NCBI GenBank assembly: GCA_964489875.1
Contig: CAZAZW010000001.1
Span: 310,337-374,336, forward strand
Length of the DNA stretch: 64,000 nt
Direction of reading: 5' to 3'
Origin: an uncultured Gammaproteobacteria bacterium
Lineage (GTDB): Bacteria; Patescibacteriota; Microgenomatia; Daviesbacterales; UBA10151
A model generated the notes under the pieces. The model saw only the letters and a program-made list of their open reading frames with translations. It ran no database searches and was not told the origin of the DNA. This document shows, piece after piece, positions 2,930-10,149 of this stretch (position 1 is the stretch's first letter; every line of letters begins with the position of its first letter). The position numbers and the translations under genes are program-made.

Positions 2930-3667
2930 TTAAATTTTCTCCGAAACAACTTGACATATTTTAATAAACTCTTCTGCGTCTAAAGAAGCATTGCCAACTA
3001 AGACTCCACTGATATTTTCCTCCATTACAAAACCTTCAACATTACTTACAGTCACACTGCCGCCATATATTATTTCTGAGTTTAGTCCATACTTTTGTTT
3101 GAAAAGAGTTGCCATTTTATCAGCATCCTCTGGGGTATCTGCTTTGCCCGCCCCGGGTGTATTATTCAAACCAGTACTTATTGCCCAAATGGGTTCGTAT
3201 GCTACCATAGTAGCGCCTTCAGGTACAGGAGTTTCTTCACCTTGAACACACACCAGCGCACTGATATTGTTTGCCAATGCCTGTTCCGTCTTTTTTGCAA
3301 CCATCTCATCGGTTTCACCAAAGTTTTTTCTCCTCTCGGAATGTCCCAAAATAACCAGATCAATCAACCCATTTAAAAGCTGTGCCGGCTCTTCCCCAGT
3401 ATAAGCTCCTGTTCCAAACGGAGATAAATCCTGCGCTCCCACTAAAAGGGGATAATTGCCTACAGAAATGGCTTTTTTGACTTCCGAAATACTATCAAAA
3501 GCCGGACAAACCACCACTTTTAAATTATCCTGCTTGGGAATTTTTGGACCAACCTCCGAAACCCAATCCAAAGCCTCACTGATAGTTTTGTTGCTTTTCC
3601 AATTGGCTATAATCCAAATATTCTTACCTTCGACAGAAGGCAAGCTTTGCTTAACCAAACCATCCAT
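2930..3667 (-). CDS. tpiA: Triosephosphate isomerase
   Basis: IIANWKSNKT, GHSERR, AYEPIWAISTG and YGGSV motifs. Confidence 0.9.
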   Translation of the reverse strand: MDGLVKQSLPSVEGKNIWIIANWKSNKTISEALDWVSEVGPKIPKQDNLKVVVCPAFDSISEVKKAISVGNYPLLVGAQDLSPFGTGAYTGEEPAQLLNGLIDLVILGHSERRKNFGETDEMVAKKTEQALANNISALVCVQGEETPVPEGATMVAYEPIWAISTGLNNTPGAGKADTPEDADKMATLFKQKYGLNSEIIYGGSVTVSNVEGFVMEENISGVLVGNASLDAEEFIKICQVVSEKI

Positions 3668-3950
3668 ACTTTTCCAAGTTTACCATGAAATCAGATGAAA
3701 CTTCTATTCCTTCTTGCAGGAGAAGCACTTTCTGCAGTTGTTTTGGGTGATCCAAGCATTTGGTGGAAATAAAACCATACCTGTTTACTACTCTATACCA
3801 AGGGCTTCTTTCTCCATAATAATGCAAAATCCCTCCCACCAACCTAGCACCTCTCGGAATTCCGGCTAAAGTTGCCAGAGTACCGTATGTGGTTACCCGA
3901 CCATAAGGAATTTTTCTGACGATTTCAAGTACGCGCTTCCGGAAATTCAA
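3651..3950 (-). CDS. Alkyltransferase-like (ATL) protein, MGMT-family DNA-binding domain without the acceptor Cys
   Basis: IPYGRVTTYGTLA...GIPRGARLVGGIL, followed by PWYRVVN where MGMT has PCHRV (Cys replaced by Trp, as in ATL proteins). Confidence 0.7.
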   Translation of the reverse strand: MNFRKRVLEIVRKIPYGRVTTYGTLATLAGIPRGARLVGGILHYYGERSPWYRVVNRYGFISTKCLDHPKQLQKVLLLQEGIEVSSDFMVNLEKYGWFG

Positions 3951-4212: not shown

Positions 4213-6141
4213 ATGATAACATATAACGCAACTATGCCCCCTCTCTTAGATGATTTAAATCCCGTTCAACAGCAAGCCGTTAAAACTACCGAAGGTCCTT
4301 GCTTAATCTTGGCTGGAGCCGGTTCCGGTAAAACGAAAGTCTTGACCCATCGGGTAGCTTATCTGATCCAGGAGAAAAGTGTACCACCGGAGAGTATTCT
4401 TATGGTCACGTTCACAAACAAAGCCGCCGGCGAGATGAGAGACCGCATAATCAAGCTTCTGAATTTCCAGCTTCCAGCCTCTAGCTTCCAACTTCCAGTA
4501 ATGGGCACTTTCCACAGTTTTTGCGCCAAAATCCTGCGCCGTGAGGGTCAGACCCTGGGATTACCCCCAGGATTTGCCATTTACGACGAAGGTGATGCTT
4601 TGGATGCAGTTAAAGAAGCCATGAGTAATTTAAACATCCCGACTCAAAAAACCTCTCCGGCTGCTGTTAGAAATACCATTTCCGGAGCTAAAAACGAACT
4701 GATTTCTTCCTTGGAATACCCACAATATGCCAGAGGTTATTTCCAGGAAACTGTGGCCAAAATTTATCTAGAATATCAAAAAATTTTAGAGAGAAACCAC
4801 GCCCTGGATTTTGATGATCTATTGTTATACGTCATTAAACTATTCCAGTCTGACCCAAGTATCTTAATCCGCTATCAAATTCAATTTCGCTATATCCTGA
4901 TAGATGAATACCAGGACACTAACCCGGCCCAATATTTAATCAGTAAATATTTATCCAAACGCCACAAAAATATTTGCGTTGTGGGTGACGCCAGCCAATC
5001 AATCTATTCATTCAGAGGCGCAGATTTTCGAAACATAGTAAATTTTCAAAAAGATTATCCGGAGGCACAAGTTTTCAACCTGGAACAAAACTACCGTTCT
5101 ACCCAAAACATCTTAGATGCAGCCTTTGCTGTTATTTCCAAGAATAGATCTCATCCAATTTTAAAACTTTGGACTAATAAAAACGGGGGGGAGAAAATTG
5201 AGGTGATTGAAGTAAGAAACGAAGTTGAAGAAGCCCTGTTTATCCTAAGCGCTATCACTCGCCTCCAAGGTGAAGCCACCACGAACCACGAACCACGAAC
5301 TCTCAACTCATTCGCCATTTTATACCGGACCAATGCCCAATCACGATCCTTAGAAGAACAATTCCTGAAAGCCGGTATTCCCTATCAGTTAGTCGGCGGA
5401 GTCAGTTTCTATGCCAGGAAAGAGATCAAGGATGTCCTGGCCTATCTTCGTCTGTTACAAAACCCCAAAGATTCAGTTTCCCTAAAACGGGCAGAAAAAA
5501 TCGGCAAAGGGAGACTTTCAAAAGTTATGGAACTTTTCACGGAAATTGAGTCCAAATTAGACCAATATGTCACATTAGACTTATTGGATTTAATTCTAAA
5601 TCGCACCGGTTATTTAGCTTATCTGGATGACAACAGTGAAGAAGGTAAGATGCGGATGGAAAATGTTAAGGAACTGCGCTCAGTGGCGGAAGAATTTCCC
5701 AACTTAACGGATTTTTTGGAAAATGTCGCTTTAGTAGAAGCTTCCGATACACAGAGACACCGAGACACTGACACACCAAAAAATGATGCCGTTACTTTAA
5801 TGACTCTGCATTCGGCCAAAGGCTTAGAATTCCCGGTAATTTTTATGGTTGGTATGGAGGAAGGTTTATTCCCTCATTCCAGATCTATGCTGGATGTAGC
5901 TCAGCTGGAAGAAGAAAGAAGGCTTTGCTATGTTGGCATTACCCGGGCCAGAGAAAGATTATATTTAACTTATACCAGACAAAGGTTATATTTTGGACAG
6001 CGCAGTAATAATTTAGTTTCCCGATTCTTAGGAGATATTCCCCAGAACCTAATTGAAAGCAATACCAATTTTAGGGACCAGGATAGTTTCTTAGATGATG
6101 TCAGCAATAAAACAGATGAGGATGATTGGCTGAAGATTTAA
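4213..6141 (+). CDS. pcrA: UvrD/PcrA-type ATP-dependent DNA helicase
   Basis: LNPVQQQAV, AGAGSGKTKVLTHRVAYLI (Walker A), DEYQDTN, VGDASQSIYSFRGA, TLHSAKGLEF, VGITRAR. Confidence 0.9.
   Translation: MITYNATMPPLLDDLNPVQQQAVKTTEGPCLILAGAGSGKTKVLTHRVAYLIQEKSVPPESILMVTFTNKAAGEMRDRIIKLLNFQLPASSFQLPVMGTFHSFCAKILRREGQTLGLPPGFAIYDEGDALDAVKEAMSNLNIPTQKTSPAAVRNTISGAKNELISSLEYPQYARGYFQETVAKIYLEYQKILERNHALDFDDLLLYVIKLFQSDPSILIRYQIQFRYILIDEYQDTNPAQYLISKYLSKRHKNICVVGDASQSIYSFRGADFRNIVNFQKDYPEAQVFNLEQNYRSTQNILDAAFAVISKNRSHPILKLWTNKNGGEKIEVIEVRNEVEEALFILSAITRLQGEATTNHEPRTLNSFAILYRTNAQSRSLEEQFLKAGIPYQLVGGVSFYARKEIKDVLAYLRLLQNPKDSVSLKRAEKIGKGRLSKVMELFTEIESKLDQYVTLDLLDLILNRTGYLAYLDDNSEEGKMRMENVKELRSVAEEFPNLTDFLENVALVEASDTQRHRDTDTPKNDAVTLMTLHSAKGLEFPVIFMVGMEEGLFPHSRSMLDVAQLEEERRLCYVGITRARERLYLTYTRQRLYFGQRSNNLVSRFLGDIPQNLIESNTNFRDQDSFLDDVSNKTDEDDWLKI
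4465..4499. repeat. Heptamer tandem array (TTCCAGC-like x5) inside pcrA
   Basis: ttccagc ttccagc ctctagc ttccaac ttccagt, translated as FQLPASSFQLPV. Confidence 0.8.
5279..5299. repeat. Perfect heptamer tandem array CCACGAA x3 inside pcrA
   Basis: ccacgaa ccacgaa ccacgaa, translated as TTNHEPRT. Confidence 0.85.
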
Positions 6142-6145
6142 CATT

Positions 6146-6841
6146 ATGGAAAGATACTTAGGCGCTCTTTTAATTATCATCCTTGCCATCTTTGCTAAAA
6201 GCTTGTGGCAATCGCCGGCTGTTTTAGGCACTTCTACTCCATCGCCAACTGAAACTTTACCGGTTAACCAATCCGTTACTACTCAGTCCTCTTTTACAGA
6301 AAAACTCCAGGAAGAAACAGAAATCCTACCAAAAGCAACAGTTTATCAGGATGACCCGGAAACAGAAGCCGGTGAGGAAAAAGTTTTAGAAGAAGGGGAA
6401 GATGGCAAAAAAATTAAGATATTTAAAATCACCTATTCTAAAGACGGGGAAGAATACGACAGAGCCTTGGTTTCTGTGGAAACAACTCCGGCAAAAGATA
6501 AAAAAATCCTGCGGGGGACAAAAATTGTCTGGAAAACACTAGCGACTGCGGACGGAGAAATTAGATATTGGAAAAAAAGGCGGGTTTATGCCACTCACTA
6601 TGACTCCCGTTGCCCGGGTTGTGATGAATGGACAGCCATTGGTATGAGAGCCGGCAAAGGGGTAATTGCCGTGGATCCCAAAGTAATCAAGCTTAGGTCA
6701 AAAGTTTATGTCCCGGGATATGGCCTGGCAGTGGCAGGAGACACCGGCGGAGCCATCAAAGGAAATATTATTGACCTAGGTTTTGACGATGCCAGGACTG
6801 CCGGCTGGTCAGCAAGATTTGTAGATATCTACCTACTATAA
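6146..6841 (+). CDS. Secreted G5-domain + 3D-domain protein (cell-wall-associated, RpfB/YabE-like architecture)
   Basis: Signal anchor. G5-like EEKVLEEGEDGKKIKIFKITYSKDGEEYDR...ILRGTK. 3D-domain end VAGDTGGAIKGNIIDLGFDDARTAGWSARFVDIYLL. Confidence 0.75.
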   Translation: MERYLGALLIIILAIFAKSLWQSPAVLGTSTPSPTETLPVNQSVTTQSSFTEKLQEETEILPKATVYQDDPETEAGEEKVLEEGEDGKKIKIFKITYSKDGEEYDRALVSVETTPAKDKKILRGTKIVWKTLATADGEIRYWKKRRVYATHYDSRCPGCDEWTAIGMRAGKGVIAVDPKVIKLRSKVYVPGYGLAVAGDTGGAIKGNIIDLGFDDARTAGWSARFVDIYLL

Positions 6842-7177
6842 CTTAACGCATTTCCCCTGCGCATCGGGATATACCGGTTCCGGATACTGACATTTGTAAC
6901 CGCTGGGACAAGCATATTGACCTTTCTCTCCAGCAAAACCCCCACAAGGTTTACCTTTATCCAAAACACATTGATTATTAATACATTTTGGTTCCCCAGG
7001 ACAGAATCTGGCACATACCTTATCTTGAGTTCTAATCAACTCTTTCCTTACTGATGTACATTTACAAATATTTACCCCACAATCGCTATCGCTGTTACAA
7101 GTGGTTTCATCTTGGGTTTTGGGGTGCAGGACTGACACTGGGAGTTGAAAAAGGAGCTTTGGAAGTTCCCTTCGCAT
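6836..7177 (-). CDS. Cys-rich domain ORF (12 Cys) without its own signal peptide, probably the frame-shifted C-terminal part of 7107-7436
   Basis: TTCNSDSDCGVNICKC...CARFCPGEPKCINNQCV...CGGF...YACPSGYKCQ...GKCVKL. Overlaps the upstream ORF by 71 nt in another frame. Confidence 0.4.
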   Translation of the reverse strand: MRRELPKLLFQLPVSVLHPKTQDETTCNSDSDCGVNICKCTSVRKELIRTQDKVCARFCPGEPKCINNQCVLDKGKPCGGFAGEKGQYACPSGYKCQYPEPVYPDAQGKCVKL

Positions 7178-7436
7178 GGCAAGTACCGATATCCGTGCAA
7201 ACTAGACAAGACGGCCCACTAAGTTCGCAATCTGGGGGACAACCTCCGGGGCCGAATTGCCGGCAATACTGTTCACTACCTTTGGCAAGAAACATAACCC
7301 TTACAGGTAGCGGAACAGCTGACCTTAATGAATGTAACGTTGAGAGGAATGAAGGATCAGATTTTATTAAAAATAACCCCACACCAACTACTATCACTCC
7401 CAGTAAAATCCAGATCCAGCCAAATCCTTTTTGCAT
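7107..7436 (-). CDS. MQKGF-type signal-anchored Cys-rich surface protein (N-terminal part)
   Basis: MQKGFGWIWILLGVIVVGVGLFL anchor, 6-Cys module (CRQFGPGGCPPDCELSGPSCLVCTDIGTC), then a P/S/V linker that ends in the overlap. Confidence 0.45.
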   Translation of the reverse strand: MQKGFGWIWILLGVIVVGVGLFLIKSDPSFLSTLHSLRSAVPLPVRVMFLAKGSEQYCRQFGPGGCPPDCELSGPSCLVCTDIGTCHAKGTSKAPFSTPSVSPAPQNPR

Positions 7437-7688
7437 TTATTTAATTCTGTGGGCTACTGAGGCTGGAGTCGACCAAAGTTCCTTTTGGATCTTTTTAGGA
7501 ACAGTTCTACCTAATTCCTTCAGATACTTTTTCCCATTAAAAATCTCCAGTAAAACCGGCTCGCCGTCTTTGTCTACCTGAACAATCATATCATCCGTAT
7601 CATAAGCGTCATCAATTTTCTTATCACTTAGTTGAATCATTAAAATATCCACATCTTCACTATAGCTAATTCTCTTTCTTGCTTTCAT
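7437..7688 (-). CDS. DUF2283-like small protein (putative antitoxin partner)
   Basis: 83 aa. YSEDVDILMIQLSDKKIDDAYDTDDMIVQVDKDGEPVLLEI resembles the DUF2283 pattern. Overlaps the upstream ORF by 23 nt. Confidence 0.5.
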   Translation of the reverse strand: MKARKRISYSEDVDILMIQLSDKKIDDAYDTDDMIVQVDKDGEPVLLEIFNGKKYLKELGRTVPKKIQKELWSTPASVAHRIK

Positions 7689-7935
7689 ATGTTCCCCTCC
7701 TGGCAGGGTGTATGGTAATTACCCTAATTATATCACCATCTTTCTCAAAAATGACCCGCAAAATATGTTTTTCATCCAGCAAACTCATAGCTGTTTCTTG
7801 ACCAAATCTGGTAACCCCTCGCCATTTAGGCTTCATTATCGTTTGTCTAATTTTTGCTTGAGACACAATCCAACCTAATGCTTTTAATCTCGGAATTTTA
7901 TCTTCCAAAACATGTACCGTTAAAACGATCTTCAC
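7666..7935 (-). CDS. DUF4258-like small protein (putative toxin)
   Basis: 89 aa. The ...HILRVIFEKDGDIIRVITIHPARR C-terminus is typical of DUF4258-type toxins. Translationally coupled to the DUF2283-like ORF. Confidence 0.45.
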   Translation of the reverse strand: MKIVLTVHVLEDKIPRLKALGWIVSQAKIRQTIMKPKWRGVTRFGQETAMSLLDEKHILRVIFEKDGDIIRVITIHPARRGTYESKKEN

Positions 7936-7952
7936 AGAATTATCTTATCATA

Positions 7953-8021
7953 GGAGTTCGCTTTGAGGATGCGCGCACTGCCGGCTGGAGCGCAAGGTTT
8001 GTGTATATTTACCTGCTCTAA
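7953..8021 (+). pseudogene. Orphan relic of a 3D-domain gene 3' end
   Basis: Translates GVRFEDARTAGWSARFVYIYLL*, versus LGFDDARTAGWSARFVDIYLL* at 6775-6841. Many synonymous differences; no upstream ORF. Confidence 0.65.
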
Positions 8022-8078
8022 TGTCATTCTGGAGCGGAGCGAAGAATCTCATTAATAAACCTAAAGACTGTTAAATTG

Positions 8079-8678
8079 CTAAGGATACAGGGCAAAGTCT
8101 ATTTTAGTTTCTTGAGCAGTCGCATCGAAGAACGTTCCAAAACGTCGATTGTTTTTTGTGCAAGTATTACCACCCCCAGCAGCGCTTCTCGGCCCATCAT
8201 ATGATCCAGCTCCTCCACATATCCATCCTGATCCTCCTTCCCGATACCAAGATGTCACTTTGTCATAATCATCCGGCGTTTTCCAAGAATATACCACAGC
8301 ATTACATGTGCTAAAACCATTTTCTTCAGCACCATTCGTACAAGGCACGATAGGTTGTTTTCCTAGATAGATAGCATTGGGATAAATTGGAAAACCTTGT
8401 AACTCATTGGTCATTTCCCCAATACCAGTCGGTGCAGAGCTGACACTGGGAATTGGGGATGGAGTAACTTGAGGAGCTACCACTGGACTTGGTAATGGAG
8501 TTCCACAAGTTAAAACCGGGTTACAAGGGGCCTTAATGCATTGGACTTGCTGGTAATGACAACCAGGGGGAGGAAAATTAGGGATCTGGATGATTTTAGC
8601 ATACCAAGCTCCTGCAGCTCCTAATCCCACTGCTAAAATTCCAATCAAAATAAAAATCCCTGCAAATCCTTTTTGCAT
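8079..8678 (-). CDS. MQKGF-type signal-anchored secreted protein with Cys module and Pro-rich linker
   Basis: Start moved to the internal ATG (MQKGFAGIFILIGILAVG). The 15 nt caaatcctttttgcat are identical to the start region of 7107-7436. Contains PPGCHYQQVQCIKAPCNPVLTCG followed by a PSPVVAPQVTPSPIPSVS linker. Confidence 0.5.
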   Translation of the reverse strand: MQKGFAGIFILIGILAVGLGAAGAWYAKIIQIPNFPPPGCHYQQVQCIKAPCNPVLTCGTPLPSPVVAPQVTPSPIPSVSSAPTGIGEMTNELQGFPIYPNAIYLGKQPIVPCTNGAEENGFSTCNAVVYSWKTPDDYDKVTSWYREGGSGWICGGAGSYDGPRSAAGGGNTCTKNNRRFGTFFDATAQETKIDFALYP

Positions 8679-8679
8679 C

Positions 8680-9393
8680 TTAATTAAATCTGAAGCCAGA
8701 TAAGATTTTATCTCCAACTTCCCCAATTACCCTGAATAAATACATTCTCCCATCCTTAGATATATACATAAATTTCGGAGAACCTGGTTGGTAAGCAACA
8801 ATTTTATATTTTGCTACCTGACCACTCACAGTAGCCTCCTGATCAAGGGCTATATGGCCTTTGGAGGTATAATCAAAAACTCCCCAGACAAAAGGGTAGT
8901 ACCAATATTTATCAAACCAACTCTCAGCTGTTAAATTATTCGGGTTATCAAATACCCAAACCGAAAATGGGTTCTTATCAAAAGATAGATCTTGATCTAA
9001 CACGGCCACCGCTCCCAAGGGTTTAGGCGGCTCATACCCAACATAACCGGTAAAGTTTTTCCTGAAATTCCCATTGCCCCTCTGATTAAACTCCTCTTCC
9101 GAGTCTGTCTTAACACTTAAATTCAAACTATAGTCAAACTTAAATCCAAGCTCTGAATTTGAATAATCGTTAAACTCCGGCTGCTTAGCGGCAGTAATTG
9201 AAGGAATTTGCAAAGAAATATCAGCTTCGGGCTCTTGTTTCTGTGGGGCTTGGTTAGAAACAATCGGTGCATCCGGCGCTTTCTGTAACTCTTTAACAGA
9301 TTTTACTTTACCGAGATAATATACTTCCGCCGTCACCAAAACTAATACTAAAATCCCAACCAATGCAACTATGTGGACAGAACCTCTTTGCAT
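8680..9393 (-). CDS. Signal-anchored secreted protein, unknown function
   Basis: MQRGSVHIVALVGILVLVLV anchor. Ends 1 nt before the next gene's start. Confidence 0.45.
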   Translation of the reverse strand: MQRGSVHIVALVGILVLVLVTAEVYYLGKVKSVKELQKAPDAPIVSNQAPQKQEPEADISLQIPSITAAKQPEFNDYSNSELGFKFDYSLNLSVKTDSEEEFNQRGNGNFRKNFTGYVGYEPPKPLGAVAVLDQDLSFDKNPFSVWVFDNPNNLTAESWFDKYWYYPFVWGVFDYTSKGHIALDQEATVSGQVAKYKIVAYQPGSPKFMYISKDGRMYLFRVIGEVGDKILSGFRFN

Positions 9394-9450
9394 AAAATAA
9401 TCATAATTTAACTATTGCCAAAATACAATTTCTTCTGTTATTATCGGTCA

Positions 9451-10149
9451 ATGGCCAAAAAGGTAACCACAAAAAGCAAAGCAACTAGGACTGCGGAAAA
9501 ATCCAGTTTCCCAGTTAATCAATCAATCTCTCCATTTAGCAAGACCAATAATTTCTTAAATAAGATATCTTCTTACAAGAATTTCCGTTCCTCGAAAACA
9601 TTTTATCTAATTCTGATAGCAGTTGGTTTACTTCTTCTGTTTATTTACAAAAAAAGCTGGTTTGTTGCTGCCATGGTTAACGGCTCACCTATTACTAATT
9701 TAGAATTACAAACGAAACTTAATAAACAATTCCGCTCCCAAATTTTAACCCAGCTAATTAATGAGAAAATTATTCTGGCAGAAGCTGCTAAGAACAATAC
9801 CATCGCAACCGAAGCGGAAATTAGCAATAAAATCTCGGAAATAGAAACCCAAGTGGGAGGAGCCCAGGCTCTGGATGCTCTTCTGACTCAACAGGGCCAA
9901 ACCAGAGATAGCATCAGACAACAAATTAGGCTGCAACTTAGCATTGAAAAGCTATATGCAAATGAGGCTACAGTTTCCGGCGAAGAAGTTGTAGCATTTA
10001 TTGAACAAAATAAGGATCAACTACAGGCCACTGATTCTGCCGGCCAACAAAAAGAGGCAGAAGAAACTTTAAAAAACCAAAAATTATCGCAAATCTTCTC
10101 ACAAAAATTCCAAGACCTCAAACAGAAAGCAGATATAAAGATCTTCTAG
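9451..10149 (+). CDS. SurA-N-like periplasmic/extracytoplasmic chaperone (no obvious PPIase domain)
   Basis: TM helix, then VAAMVNGSPITNLELQTKLNKQFRSQILTQLINEKIILAEAAKNN (SurA_N pattern). Start set at the first ATG. Confidence 0.55.
   Translation: MAKKVTTKSKATRTAEKSSFPVNQSISPFSKTNNFLNKISSYKNFRSSKTFYLILIAVGLLLLFIYKKSWFVAAMVNGSPITNLELQTKLNKQFRSQILTQLINEKIILAEAAKNNTIATEAEISNKISEIETQVGGAQALDALLTQQGQTRDSIRQQIRLQLSIEKLYANEATVSGEEVVAFIEQNKDQLQATDSAGQQKEAEETLKNQKLSQIFSQKFQDLKQKADIKIF

Follow-up and report, generated by a model that had tools for sequence, protein, structure and literature searches.

Orphan 3' ends of a G5/3D-domain gene beside toxin-antitoxin-like cassettes in Candidatus Daviesbacteria suggest sequential displacement of a conserved gene end

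The window analysed in this study is a 64-kb stretch of DNA from a Candidatus Daviesbacteria (CPR) bacterium. The region of interest lies around and behind a gene for a G5/3D-domain protein and comprises the following features, listed by position in the window together with the source of each assignment.

6146..6841, plus strand: intact G5/3D-domain gene, 231 aa (Pfam G5 2e-14, 3D 2e-14)
6773..6841, plus strand: left copy of a direct repeat, comprising the present final 22 codons and stop of the G5/3D gene (aligned codon by codon with the relic)
6836..7436, minus strand: frameshifted gene encoding a small Cys-rich secreted protein, anchored in the membrane by its N-terminal 'MQKGF' segment (P0188 alignment)
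7437..7688, minus strand: DUF2283 protein, 83 aa, presumed antitoxin, second gene of the pair (Pfam PF10049)
7666..7935, minus strand: presumed toxin, 89 aa, RelE/ParE (BECR) fold, GTG start (AlphaFold2 model)
7942..7951, minus strand: conserved box ATCTTATCAT (on the toxin strand ATGATAAGAT), lying 7-16 nt before the start of the toxin gene (conserved in all contexts)
7953..8021, plus strand: orphan G5/3D 3' end (the relic), ending in TAA, with firm homology over 7962-8021 (tblastn, nhmmer, codon comparison)
8023..8050, plus strand: GC-rich motif GTCATTCTGGAGCGGAGCGAAGAATCTC, a short hairpin with the stem ATTCT/AGAAT (motif search, folding, relatives)
8079..8678, minus strand: second gene for a 'MQKGF' membrane-anchored Cys-rich secreted protein, probable start ATG at 8678 (ORF list)
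8680..9393, minus strand: conserved right-hand neighbour, a 237-aa membrane-anchored protein, followed by a SurA-like gene (adjoins the slot at most Daviesbacteria loci)

The G5/3D protein has 2276 homologues, of which the nearest named ones are from Candidatus Daviesbacteria, and the gene order trx-uvrD-G5/3D is kept across this group. Its NCBIfam matches are to the C-termini of EntA-D and SpsC, and it is putatively a cell-wall-binding protein resembling lytic transglycosylases. The 3' end of the gene reads ...GFDDARTAGWSARFVDIYLL up to the stop codon. Within it, the V-D-I-Y codons form the near-palindrome GTAGATATCTAC, and the gene-end hairpins covary, namely a stop-codon hairpin and a conserved GAAAGTACTGAG...CGAAGTGCTGG hairpin.

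Four minus-strand ORFs had originally been predicted behind this gene, a DUF4258-like/DUF2283-like pair and two overlapping Cys-rich ORFs. The toxin-antitoxin (TA)-like pair and the Cys-rich coding sequence were recovered, but the genes number three, as the Cys-rich ORFs 7107-7436 and 6836-7177 are a single gene with a frameshift near 7110-7130. The 201-aa protein P0188 aligns at 63% over 100% of the fused reading and crosses the junction, and the frameshifted sequence recurs with 99.9% identity in an independent assembly (L081; related loci are designated by L numbers). The stop of the Cys-rich gene lies within the final codons of the 3D gene, and the Cys-rich product matched no Pfam or NCBIfam family. 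The GC content of the block, 0.36-0.47, falls within the local range of 0.31-0.49, so that the comparison with the flanks proposed as a check does not mark the block as an outlier.

The DUF2283 assignment of the presumed antitoxin is confirmed by Pfam at 1e-8 (PF10049, 35.6 bits against a curated cut-off of 23). Its co-oriented partner, which overlaps it by 23 nt and accompanies it in every context found, had been proposed to be DUF4258-like. This family was not detected by Pfam or NCBIfam, and searches with the 89-aa protein gave no Pfam (E<=0.1), NCBIfam (E<=1) or PDB sequence match. On the other hand, an AlphaFold2 model with a pLDDT of 93.3 suggested a RelE/ParE fold: YoeB, ParE, HigB, RelE and BrnT toxins make up all of the 20 best fold matches in the PDB, with Foldseek probabilities up to 0.99, a TM of ~0.54 and E-values of just 0.02-0.2. 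The role as a toxin is presumed. The family is small, with 67 proteins. The box upstream of the toxin gene is kept ahead of the toxin start in every context, relic-free loci (L086, L088, L091, and L092) included. It may be a -10-like promoter element of the TA pair, and it marks the right end of the DNA that travels with the module. A consensus scan at the box found no canonical -35/-10 pair.

Directly behind the box lies the orphan gene end, which reads ...FEDARTAGWSARFVYIYLL and the stop over 7953-8021. Its core, 7962-8021, is a copy of the last 19 codons and the stop of the G5/3D gene, with 47/60 identical nucleotides (50/69 over 7953-8021). An orphan second copy of the 3D gene end on the same strand had been noted, and it is found within the window by tblastn with E=1.6e-7, far above chance, and by an nhmmer profile of 55 gene ends with E=1.3e-12. 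No other gene of the 64-kb window has its 3' end repeated. The divergence is of the coding type, in agreement with the predicted origin from a diverged allele: eight codons differ synonymously, e.g. TCA/AGC for Ser, and only two of the 19 residues are changed, D to E and D to Y. The Asp replaced by Tyr (8004-8006) is invariant among 120 homologues. Because of these 13 mismatches in 60 nt, eight synonymous codons, and two residue changes, the two copies must have diverged as functional genes in separate lineages and met recently.

The possibility that the relic belongs to a longer, frameshifted gene was raised in the original prediction. The rest of the G5/3D gene was sought upstream of 7947 and no resemblance was found, and therefore the relic is not part of such a gene. 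Translation of the relic itself was considered and rejected, since its frame relative to the conserved box varies among genomes and no start codon is consistently present. Halves of the window relic were also compared by eye for mosaicism with L082, L099, and L001, none of which is a close enough relative for this purpose.

The GC-rich motif that had been noted behind the relic is present and occurs once in the window. Its fold is weak when taken alone (-8.2 kcal/mol, z -0.9), but comparison with relatives identifies it as the native post-stop hairpin: in L016, L017, L009, L008, L037, and L178 a homologous motif sits directly behind the intact gene or another relic. The motif is a probable terminator-type hairpin and part of a displaced native end. 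A search of 6000-9500 against Rfam gave no match at E<=1, and a scan of the 64 kb for the stem-GAG...CGA-stem hairpin class gave just two matches, both unrelated. Promoter and terminator consensus searches near the relic gave nothing above background. A genome-wide repeat element was rejected because the motif is unique in the window and no other window gene has a 3'-end relic.

Comparison of 65 distinct related loci showed that the slot behind the G5/3D gene is variable, with 0 to ~5 kb of differing content, and that the 237-aa gene forms its right border. The two closest relatives with data, L082 and L176, whose 3D proteins are ~90% identical to that of the window, have an empty slot in which the 3D gene abuts the 237-aa gene. 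Because these loci run straight from the gene into the 237-aa neighbor, 6847-8692 of the window is extra DNA, in contrast to the predicted limits of 6842-7952. The second Cys-rich gene, missing from L082, belongs to the variable slot. Across the loci different cassettes lie between the same conserved flanks (the G5/3D gene on one side, the 237-aa or SurA genes on the other) without mobility genes, and insert sizes range from ~71 nt to ~3 kb.

Orphan gene ends recur in many of these genomes. One to three orphan G5/3D 3' ends are present in 18 of the 65 loci, always on the strand of the gene and between it and the next conserved gene. They encode the same conserved residues as the functional end. 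Their starting points vary, lying at about codon 62 in L115, where the second copy is 5'-truncated from there on, and at about 25, 23, 18, 12, and 7 codons before the stop elsewhere. The junctions of long relics fall in the most conserved nucleotide block of the gene end (mean pairwise identity 0.81-0.83). In about 13 short relics the junction is the same, at the Trp codon (GC|TGG), and is accompanied by a conserved hairpin spacer of 35 nt, the stem of which shows compensatory changes. Stop-codon read-through into these short relics was rejected, as the frames vary among genomes. The relics are also of very different preservation: that of L099 is 91% identical to the resident end, and its two copies have a 29-nt identical block, whereas those of L031 and L020 are nearly erased. 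The Asp to Tyr change (GAT to TAT) is found in four relics. Damaging changes are apparently more common in the cassette-side half of TA-linked relics, an observation that is confounded by the definition of the relic start.

The flanks of the relics are colinear with those of intact genes. The window relic and its right flank correspond to an intact gene end with its hairpin in L017 (77.6% over 85 nt) and L178 (77.5% over 80 nt), and also in L009 and L016, and displaced ends in other genomes likewise retain their own covarying hairpin partner. The relic is therefore most likely the former end of the resident gene and was not imported with the cassette, a reading based on comparison of these sequences. 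The reverse arrangement is seen on the left side. In the window, the current end of the 3D gene overlaps the 3' end of the Cys-rich gene, and this stretch is colinear with a displaced relic and the same Cys-rich gene in L175 (75% over 640 nt; ~93% at the junction by eye), where the end that is functional in the window has been displaced by an MNT/HEPN cassette. This suggests that the left repeat copy, 6773..6841, came in with the cassette. In L110 and L112, a displaced long relic is followed by the complement of its own variable codons (9 and 8 bp, respectively) and then by an older short relic. A homologue of the second Cys-rich gene is located directly behind a TA-linked relic in L001, which has the same order of TA pair, relic, and Cys-rich neighbor as the window. 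As both relics look young, either independent events are needed or the relic has been refreshed by recombination.

Long relics always adjoin a TA-like pair. At least five TA-like families were found as cargo, including DUF2283 with the RelE/ParE-fold toxin, HicAB (HicA), MNT/HepT, AbiEii, and DUF5678; Pfam and the ORF lists revealed TA-like and secreted proteins only. The modules are discordant with the host phylogeny when their sequences are compared: between L011 and L020 the TA modules agree at 85% and the host 3D sequences at 63%, whereas between the window and L011 the corresponding values are 52 and 77%. At other loci the same TA family has the box but no relic, and the idea that the relic is an intrinsic part of the TA module was rejected on this ground. 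The occurrence of the same genes without a relic had been named as evidence against a recombination scar. At loci of the TA family without an obvious relic, a decayed one is usually visible (L020, L031, and L036), but L100, with an internally truncated toxin gene, has none. Translation of 102 kb of slot DNA (73 loci) in all six frames turned up no tyrosine- or serine-recombinase motifs, and inspection of the slot ORF lists by eye revealed no recombinase-like ORFs. A viral origin or attP site was rejected, as an exact-pattern scan of IMG/VR did not contain the degenerate gene-end pattern.

The proposal that the arrangement is a cassette scar from recombination at the conserved 3' end of the 3D gene is supported by the comparison with ~65 loci and the relics in 18 of them. 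We consider it probable that the locus arose by sequential 3'-end displacement through homology-anchored recombination at the 3' border of the conserved gene, which would act as a recombination hot spot. The donor would be DNA of another Daviesbacteria strain that carries the uvrD-G5/3D region with different downstream genes, in the case of the window the Cys-rich secreted-protein gene and the RelE/ParE-fold and DUF2283 pair. This DNA would pair with the resident chromosome via the homologous G5/3D gene, possibly in dependence on RecA and natural transformation, and the right-hand joint would land within the last codons of the resident gene. Genes for competence and homologous recombination have been reported in Patescibacteria (PMC12455944). 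The joint could be illegitimate (homology-facilitated illegitimate recombination), could result from a single crossover with a circular intermediate bearing part of a gene end, or could form by homologous pairing of a pre-existing relic of the donor with the functional end of the recipient. In each case the gene would remain intact with the incoming 3' end, and the old end, presumably the native copy, would be moved downstream together with its own hairpin and neighbors, where it would be untranslated and decay. Retention of the insert would be favored by an addictive TA pair, which may thus contribute to fixation, and repeated events would lead to arrays of orphan ends. The nearest relative of the window is only ~79% identical in DNA, so that the exact joints, the donor tract, and the order in which things happened at this locus are inferred and not directly seen.

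Some observations sit less easily with sequential displacement. A homologous crossover in 60-75 nt at 70-90% identity should be very inefficient. The common junction and spacer of the ~13 short relics look more like the product of site-directed than of random events and are not fully explained. Homology-facilitated illegitimate recombination was rare where measured (PMC5361080). A more tentative extension, which we regard as possible but rather doubtful, is that the direct repeats make each TA cassette a self-contained mobile unit without a recombinase. The conserved piece of gene end would then serve as a portable homology arm. Once looped out, or once taken up as DNA, the cassette could return to this gene in any Daviesbacteria through the homologous recombination of the host. 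Each insertion would turn the functional end of the host gene into a fresh relic, TA addiction would drive fixation, and the hairpins might mark or promote the joint.

The features that look site-directed lead to the question whether the gene 3' end is instead an attachment site, at which cassettes with a replacement end are mobilized by a tyrosine, serine, or Xer-type recombinase whose gene lies elsewhere in the genome or on a helper element. Such site-specific integration would account for an insert flanked by direct repeats, the restored target gene, and the tandem accretion of relics, and the shared GC|TGG junction with its compensated hairpin spacer, the near-palindrome in the V-D-I-Y codons, and the 29-nt identical block in both L099 copies are compatible with it. 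Yet the junctions are spread between codon 62 and a point 7 codons short of the stop, the smallest inserts are ~71 nt, and the common core is no greater than coding constraint accounts for. As neither the 102 kb of slot DNA contains a recombinase motif or ORF nor any IMG/VR viral contig the gene-end pattern, we consider this explanation unlikely. A second G5/3D gene, inherited in tandem and eroded from its 5' side down to its 3' end, would explain that every relic retains the 3' end and loses the 5' side, as well as the longer, 5'-truncated copy of L115. An intact frame and stop with mostly synonymous differences are not expected in an old neutral remnant, however, and relics that range from 91% identical to nearly erased imply many events of differing ages. 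Together with up to three nested relics per locus with differing junctions, and the native post-stop flanks that relics retain, this makes decay of a tandem paralogue quite improbable.

That the relic starts 2-10 nt from the -10-like box of the toxin in several genomes, and that four relics have the identical Asp to Tyr change, could also indicate a selected non-coding element, either a promoter or operator of a divergent TA operon or an RNA or terminator signal. Relics adjoin unrelated TA families in either orientation, however, vary at synonymous sites, and are completely decayed in some genomes, and the TA family at other loci has the box without a relic. As neither a sigma-70-type promoter nor an Rfam family was found there, selection for such an element appears highly improbable. 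The layout of a non-coding near-copy beside the gene 3' end matches in addition that of a diversity-generating retroelement or a silent cassette, in which the relic would be a template or reserve copy that varies the C terminus. Here the mismatch spectrum is effectively a refutation, with relic adenines at just 1 of the 13 mismatches. Synonymous changes yield no protein diversity, the ORF lists show a reverse transcriptase in none of the slots, and the copies are all direct and none inverted, so that this explanation can be practically dismissed.

Sequential displacement has parallels in known systems. For the 'C-terminal displacement' arrays of Rhs genes, homologous recombination with circular intermediates and no integrase has been proposed (Jackson et al. 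2009, PMC2935791). As in the present locus, an intact gene is followed by same-strand, 5'-truncated fragments in which the conserved part extends for a varying length to the former end, and laterally acquired new ends displace the incumbent downstream. Displaced Rhs tips, however, are variable and functional, carry toxin domains with immunity genes, and diversify the protein, whereas here the residues are conserved and the protein is unchanged. The host gene is a polymorphic toxin in one case and a housekeeping cell-wall gene of a CPR bacterium in the other, and the payload of the window locus is the downstream genes (TA pairs and secreted proteins), with repeats of mostly only 20-75 nt. The effector-immunity modules of the Vibrio cholerae T6SS similarly show repeated insertion at one conserved border, older modules shifted downstream, and no integrase found. 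[quoted passage not shown] 2017, PMC5361080), and completed arrays are subsequently transferred by ordinary homologous recombination (PMC5361080). They differ in that the old effector is replaced and not duplicated, and in that the retained orphan immunity genes have selective value, whereas here a non-functional gene end is retained.

The minimal mobile elements of Neisseria are variable cassettes between conserved genes that are exchanged by transformation and homologous recombination (a concept cited in PMC3787668). The present slot resembles them in that it holds small cassettes which vary from genome to genome, TA modules among them, and no mobility genes. By analogy, the slot contents may be exchanged here by transformation and homologous recombination in the flanks. 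Classical minimal mobile elements have no duplicated flank, whereas the relics show that at least some events had one joint within the flanking gene. Islands that an integrase has placed at the 3' end of a tRNA, tmRNA, or protein gene likewise supply a replacement end, keep the old one on the far side as a partial direct repeat, and occur with tandem remnants. They differ from the inserts of ~71 nt to ~3 kb described here, for which the slots searched contained no integrase and the long relics start at many positions.

To our knowledge, the movement of TA pairs and other cassettes between genomes without a transposase or integrase is poorly understood, and the uncultivated CPR/Patescibacteria are nearly blank in this respect. 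The locus is a readable record of such movement: in dozens of genomes, the one conserved gene is trailed by nested displaced ends of differing ages, and the long relics lie next to TA pairs. By analogy with the Rhs and T6SS loci, it suggests that displacement as known from polymorphic-toxin loci is more general, and may also take place at a housekeeping gene whose protein is left unchanged while cargo is loaded behind it. Relics of this kind are a cheap marker of recent lateral insertion and of recombination borders in metagenome-assembled genomes, and the locus could serve to measure rates of recombination and decay in CPR populations.

The 231-aa product of the G5/3D gene matches the Pfam domains G5 and 3D (2e-14 each) and, in NCBIfam, the C-termini of the wall-binding EntA-D and SpsC proteins; its nearest homologues are from named Candidatus Daviesbacteria (CPR/Microgenomates lineage). 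The last codons and stop of the gene are repeated downstream as an orphan copy, here called the relic, and the region is organized as follows.

6146-6841, plus strand: G5/3D gene
6836-7177 and 7107-7436, minus strand: two ORFs of one Cys-rich gene, with a frameshift near 7110-7130
7437-7688, minus strand: antitoxin candidate (DUF2283, Pfam 1e-8)
7666-7935, minus strand: toxin candidate
7953-8021, plus strand: relic, with a firm core at 7962-8021
8023-8050, plus strand: GC-rich motif
8680-9393, minus strand: 237-aa gene, right border of the variable slot that begins after the G5/3D gene

The original prediction of an orphan 3' end proved to be real. The relic is identical to the gene end at 50 of 69 nt over the predicted span and at 47 of 60 nt in the firm core, and it is recovered both by tblastn within the window (E=1.6e-7) and by an nhmmer profile of 55 gene ends (E=1.3e-12). 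Eight codons differ synonymously, TCA/AGC among them, and two residues differ, one being an Asp to Tyr exchange at a position invariant in 120 homologues. Upstream of 7947, nothing matches the remainder of the G5/3D gene. No 3'-end copy of any other gene was found in the 64-kb window. Four separate relics share the GAT to TAT change at the invariant Asp (F-V-D-I-Y-L-L): window 8004-8006, L012 about 9184, and both the short relic (about 8747) and the long relic (about 9090) of L112, L-numbers denoting related loci. The change abolishes a GATATC-centred palindrome. This recurrence may reflect chance, a mutational hotspot or selection.

All genes between the two copies lie on the minus strand. 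The Cys-rich ORFs had been described as two overlapping ORFs, but a 201-aa homologue (P0188) aligns across the frameshift junction with 63% identity to the whole fused reading, so that they are one frameshifted gene. The frameshifted sequence recurs in L081, where the same strain was assembled independently. The frameshift (window 7107-7177) sits in a stretch rich in C and A (coding strand: CCCCAAAACCC), and the gene could be a pseudogene or contain a programmed or slippage-prone frameshift. Its product has an 'MQKGF' N-terminal membrane anchor, as do most slot genes of relatives. The slot proteins are small and belong to a large family that diverges fast; they have an 'MQKGF/MQKGQ' anchor, a Pro/Ser/Thr linker and often 'ETANWKTY', and none matches a Pfam or NCBIfam family. 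In the window the family is represented at 8079-8678 and 8680-9393, and in relatives in the slots of L001, L008, L009, L014, L016, L017, L036 and L037.

The toxin candidate has no sequence match in Pfam, NCBIfam or PDB. Its AlphaFold2 model (pLDDT 93.3) adopts a RelE/ParE-type fold, and the best 20 PDB fold matches are all YoeB, ParE, HigB, RelE or BrnT toxins, with probabilities up to 0.99 and weak E-values. Together with the DUF2283 match of its neighbor, this makes a putative toxin-antitoxin (TA) pair a reasonable assignment, as originally predicted; the accompanying DUF4258 label found no sequence-level support. Base composition, one of the checks proposed, showed nothing unusual, the block being no outlier against its surroundings. 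In every context (window 7942-7951; equivalent sites in L086, L088, L091, L092, L011, L014 and L099) the toxin start is preceded, at a distance of 7-16 nt, by a conserved box that reads ATGATAWGAT (TGnTAWGAT-like) on the toxin strand and would suit an extended -10 promoter of a leaderless or near-leaderless mRNA.

The locus was compared across 65 distinct Daviesbacteria loci with a gene end, collected from one species-representative genome scan and one metagenome-contig scan; look-ups of specific proteins added some further loci. The conserved order is trx-uvrD-G5/3D-[slot]-237-aa protein-SurA-FemAB-methyltransferase-PepP, with slots ranging from nothing to about 5 kb. The slot is empty in L082 and L176, which are the nearest relatives with data and have a 3D protein about 90% identical; against these two, window 6847-8692 is extra DNA. 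Relics recur in 18 of the 65 loci, one to three in each (nhmmer E<0.01), always on the gene's strand and between the G5/3D gene and the next conserved gene; weaker or partial cases are L009, L030, L115, L152 and L175. At L002:8697-8800, directly 3' of the 3D stop, a unit of about 33 nt (caagctctgcttaattccgagtcttcgaggaat) is tandemly repeated in at least 3 copies and occupies the place of the hairpins or relics of other genomes. At L018:5822-6906, the gene that precedes the 3D gene, encoding a uvrD/PcrA-type helicase, is interrupted between alignment residues 264 and 263 by about 1.08 kb that could be an intein, intron or homing-endonuclease insertion.

In many relatives the 3D stop codon lies in the loop of a hairpin, which the current gene end of the window lacks. 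Its 5' arm is formed by variable codons (x-A-x-F) and its 3' arm by the immediate post-stop sequence, and from genome to genome the two arms covary (p=5e-5 by permutation). Downstream, a second hairpin has a conserved sequence with compensatory stem changes. The 13 two-hairpin units (for example L011:8655-8729, L022:8667-8741 and L110:3469-3543) have folding z of -2.7 to -3.8, and the hairpins are putative terminators.

Each long relic adjoins a TA-like pair, as listed below.

DUF2283-type pair: window, L011, L014, L099, L036
DUF2283-type pair, toxin gene decayed: L001
DUF2283-type pair, relic decayed but still visible: L020, L031
HicA-containing pair: L012, L112, L110
MNT/HepT: L037, L175
AbiEii: L073
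DUF5678 and an aspartyl-protease-like protein: L009

Elsewhere in genomes the window's TA family keeps the box, and no relic accompanies it at those sites (for example the S10 operon, a Carb_kinase neighbor and a Gottesmanbacteria contig); the relic thus goes with the locus and not with the module. At L088:1848-2349 (also L089 and L090), rpsJ (S10) and rplC (L3) are separated by inserted small genes, among them the same toxin/DUF2283 pair, which is about 75% identical in nucleotides to that of the window; the interior of this ribosomal-protein operon is an unusual site for accessory genes. TA similarity is discordant with host similarity (L011 and L020: TA 85%, host 3D 63%; window and L011: TA 52%, host 77%); TA modules have crossed from one lineage to another.

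Four lines of evidence from other genomes suggest that the relic and its right flank are a former functional gene end. The relic with the GC-rich motif (7960-8044) is colinear with the intact end and post-stop sequence of L017 (77.6%, 85 nt), and likewise of L009 and L016; it also matches L178 (77.5% over 80 nt), whose layout of gene end, hairpin, MQKGF gene and 237-aa gene is the state predicted before insertion. In 13 units from relatives the post-stop sequence is the reverse complement of the unit's own x-A-x-F codons, with complementary runs of 7.15 nt on average, compared with 4.16 nt when units are mismatched (p=5e-5 by permutation), and in L110 and L112 the displaced long relic keeps its own partner (9 and 8 bp), with an older short relic still downstream. 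The window's functional arrangement, in which the last codons of the gene overlap the stop of the Cys-rich gene, occurs in L175 in displaced form, as a relic behind an MNT/HEPN cassette. Finally, relics differ in their state of preservation, that of L099 being 91% identical to the resident end and that of L031 nearly erased, as expected if such events happened repeatedly, at different times, and the displaced ends then decayed neutrally. A functional role for the relic is unlikely, and so is a decayed tandem paralogue. For the window, the direction of events and the exact joints are read from these other genomes.

As to how the joint forms, a six-frame scan confined to the slots of 73 loci (102 kb) revealed no dedicated recombinase motif; slot ORFs encode TA-like or secreted proteins, and the gene-end pattern occurs in no viral contig searched. 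A DGR is an improbable source. Junction positions differ among relics, with starts at about 25, 23, 18, 12 or 7 codons before the stop, and long-relic junctions fall within the best-conserved nucleotide block of the gene's end. L115 has a second, 5'-truncated copy (3389-3891) that follows a HicAB pair and an AbiEii gene fragment and begins near codon 62. Its identity to the first copy is about 65% and then rises to 100% in the final 123 nt, which run to the contig end; this suggests a recent crossover or conversion tract, or an assembly-breaking repeat. The same architecture is known from Rhs genes, where 'C-terminal displacement' is attributed to homologous recombination and circular intermediates carrying partial core (PMC2935791), and from T6SS effector-immunity modules, where 'sequential displacement' is attributed to homology-facilitated illegitimate recombination (PMC5361080). 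Homologous-recombination and DNA-uptake genes have been reported in Patescibacteria (PMC12455944). Given slots free of recombinase motifs, the scattered junctions, these precedents and these genes, homology-anchored recombination is moderately favored: incoming DNA would recombine via a homologous anchor, with the right-hand joint in the resident gene's last codons, and the TA pair probably aids retention of the insert.

A site-directed mechanism stays a rival, if a rather doubtful one, on account of the regularity of the short relics. About 13 of these share one junction, at a Trp codon, and a 35-nt spacer between the new stop and the relic. The spacer consists of the stop-codon hairpin arm and the second hairpin (GAAAGTACTGAG...CGAAGTGCTGG) and is more conserved than the flanking coding-like repeats, its stem showing compensatory changes. 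In L001, L003 and L110, relics that are shorter still, with starts at the V-D codons, follow a second module type, composed of TT, the complement of the V-D codons and CCCTGAGCGAAGTCGAAGGG.

Homology-anchored recombination agrees with the original reading of the arrangement as a scar of recombination, which was right in essence, as the empty relatives, recurrent relics and colinear flanks indicate. The arrangement is one case of a Daviesbacteria hot spot at which gene 3' ends are displaced repeatedly and without an integrase, a variation on the known process of displacement at polymorphic-toxin loci.
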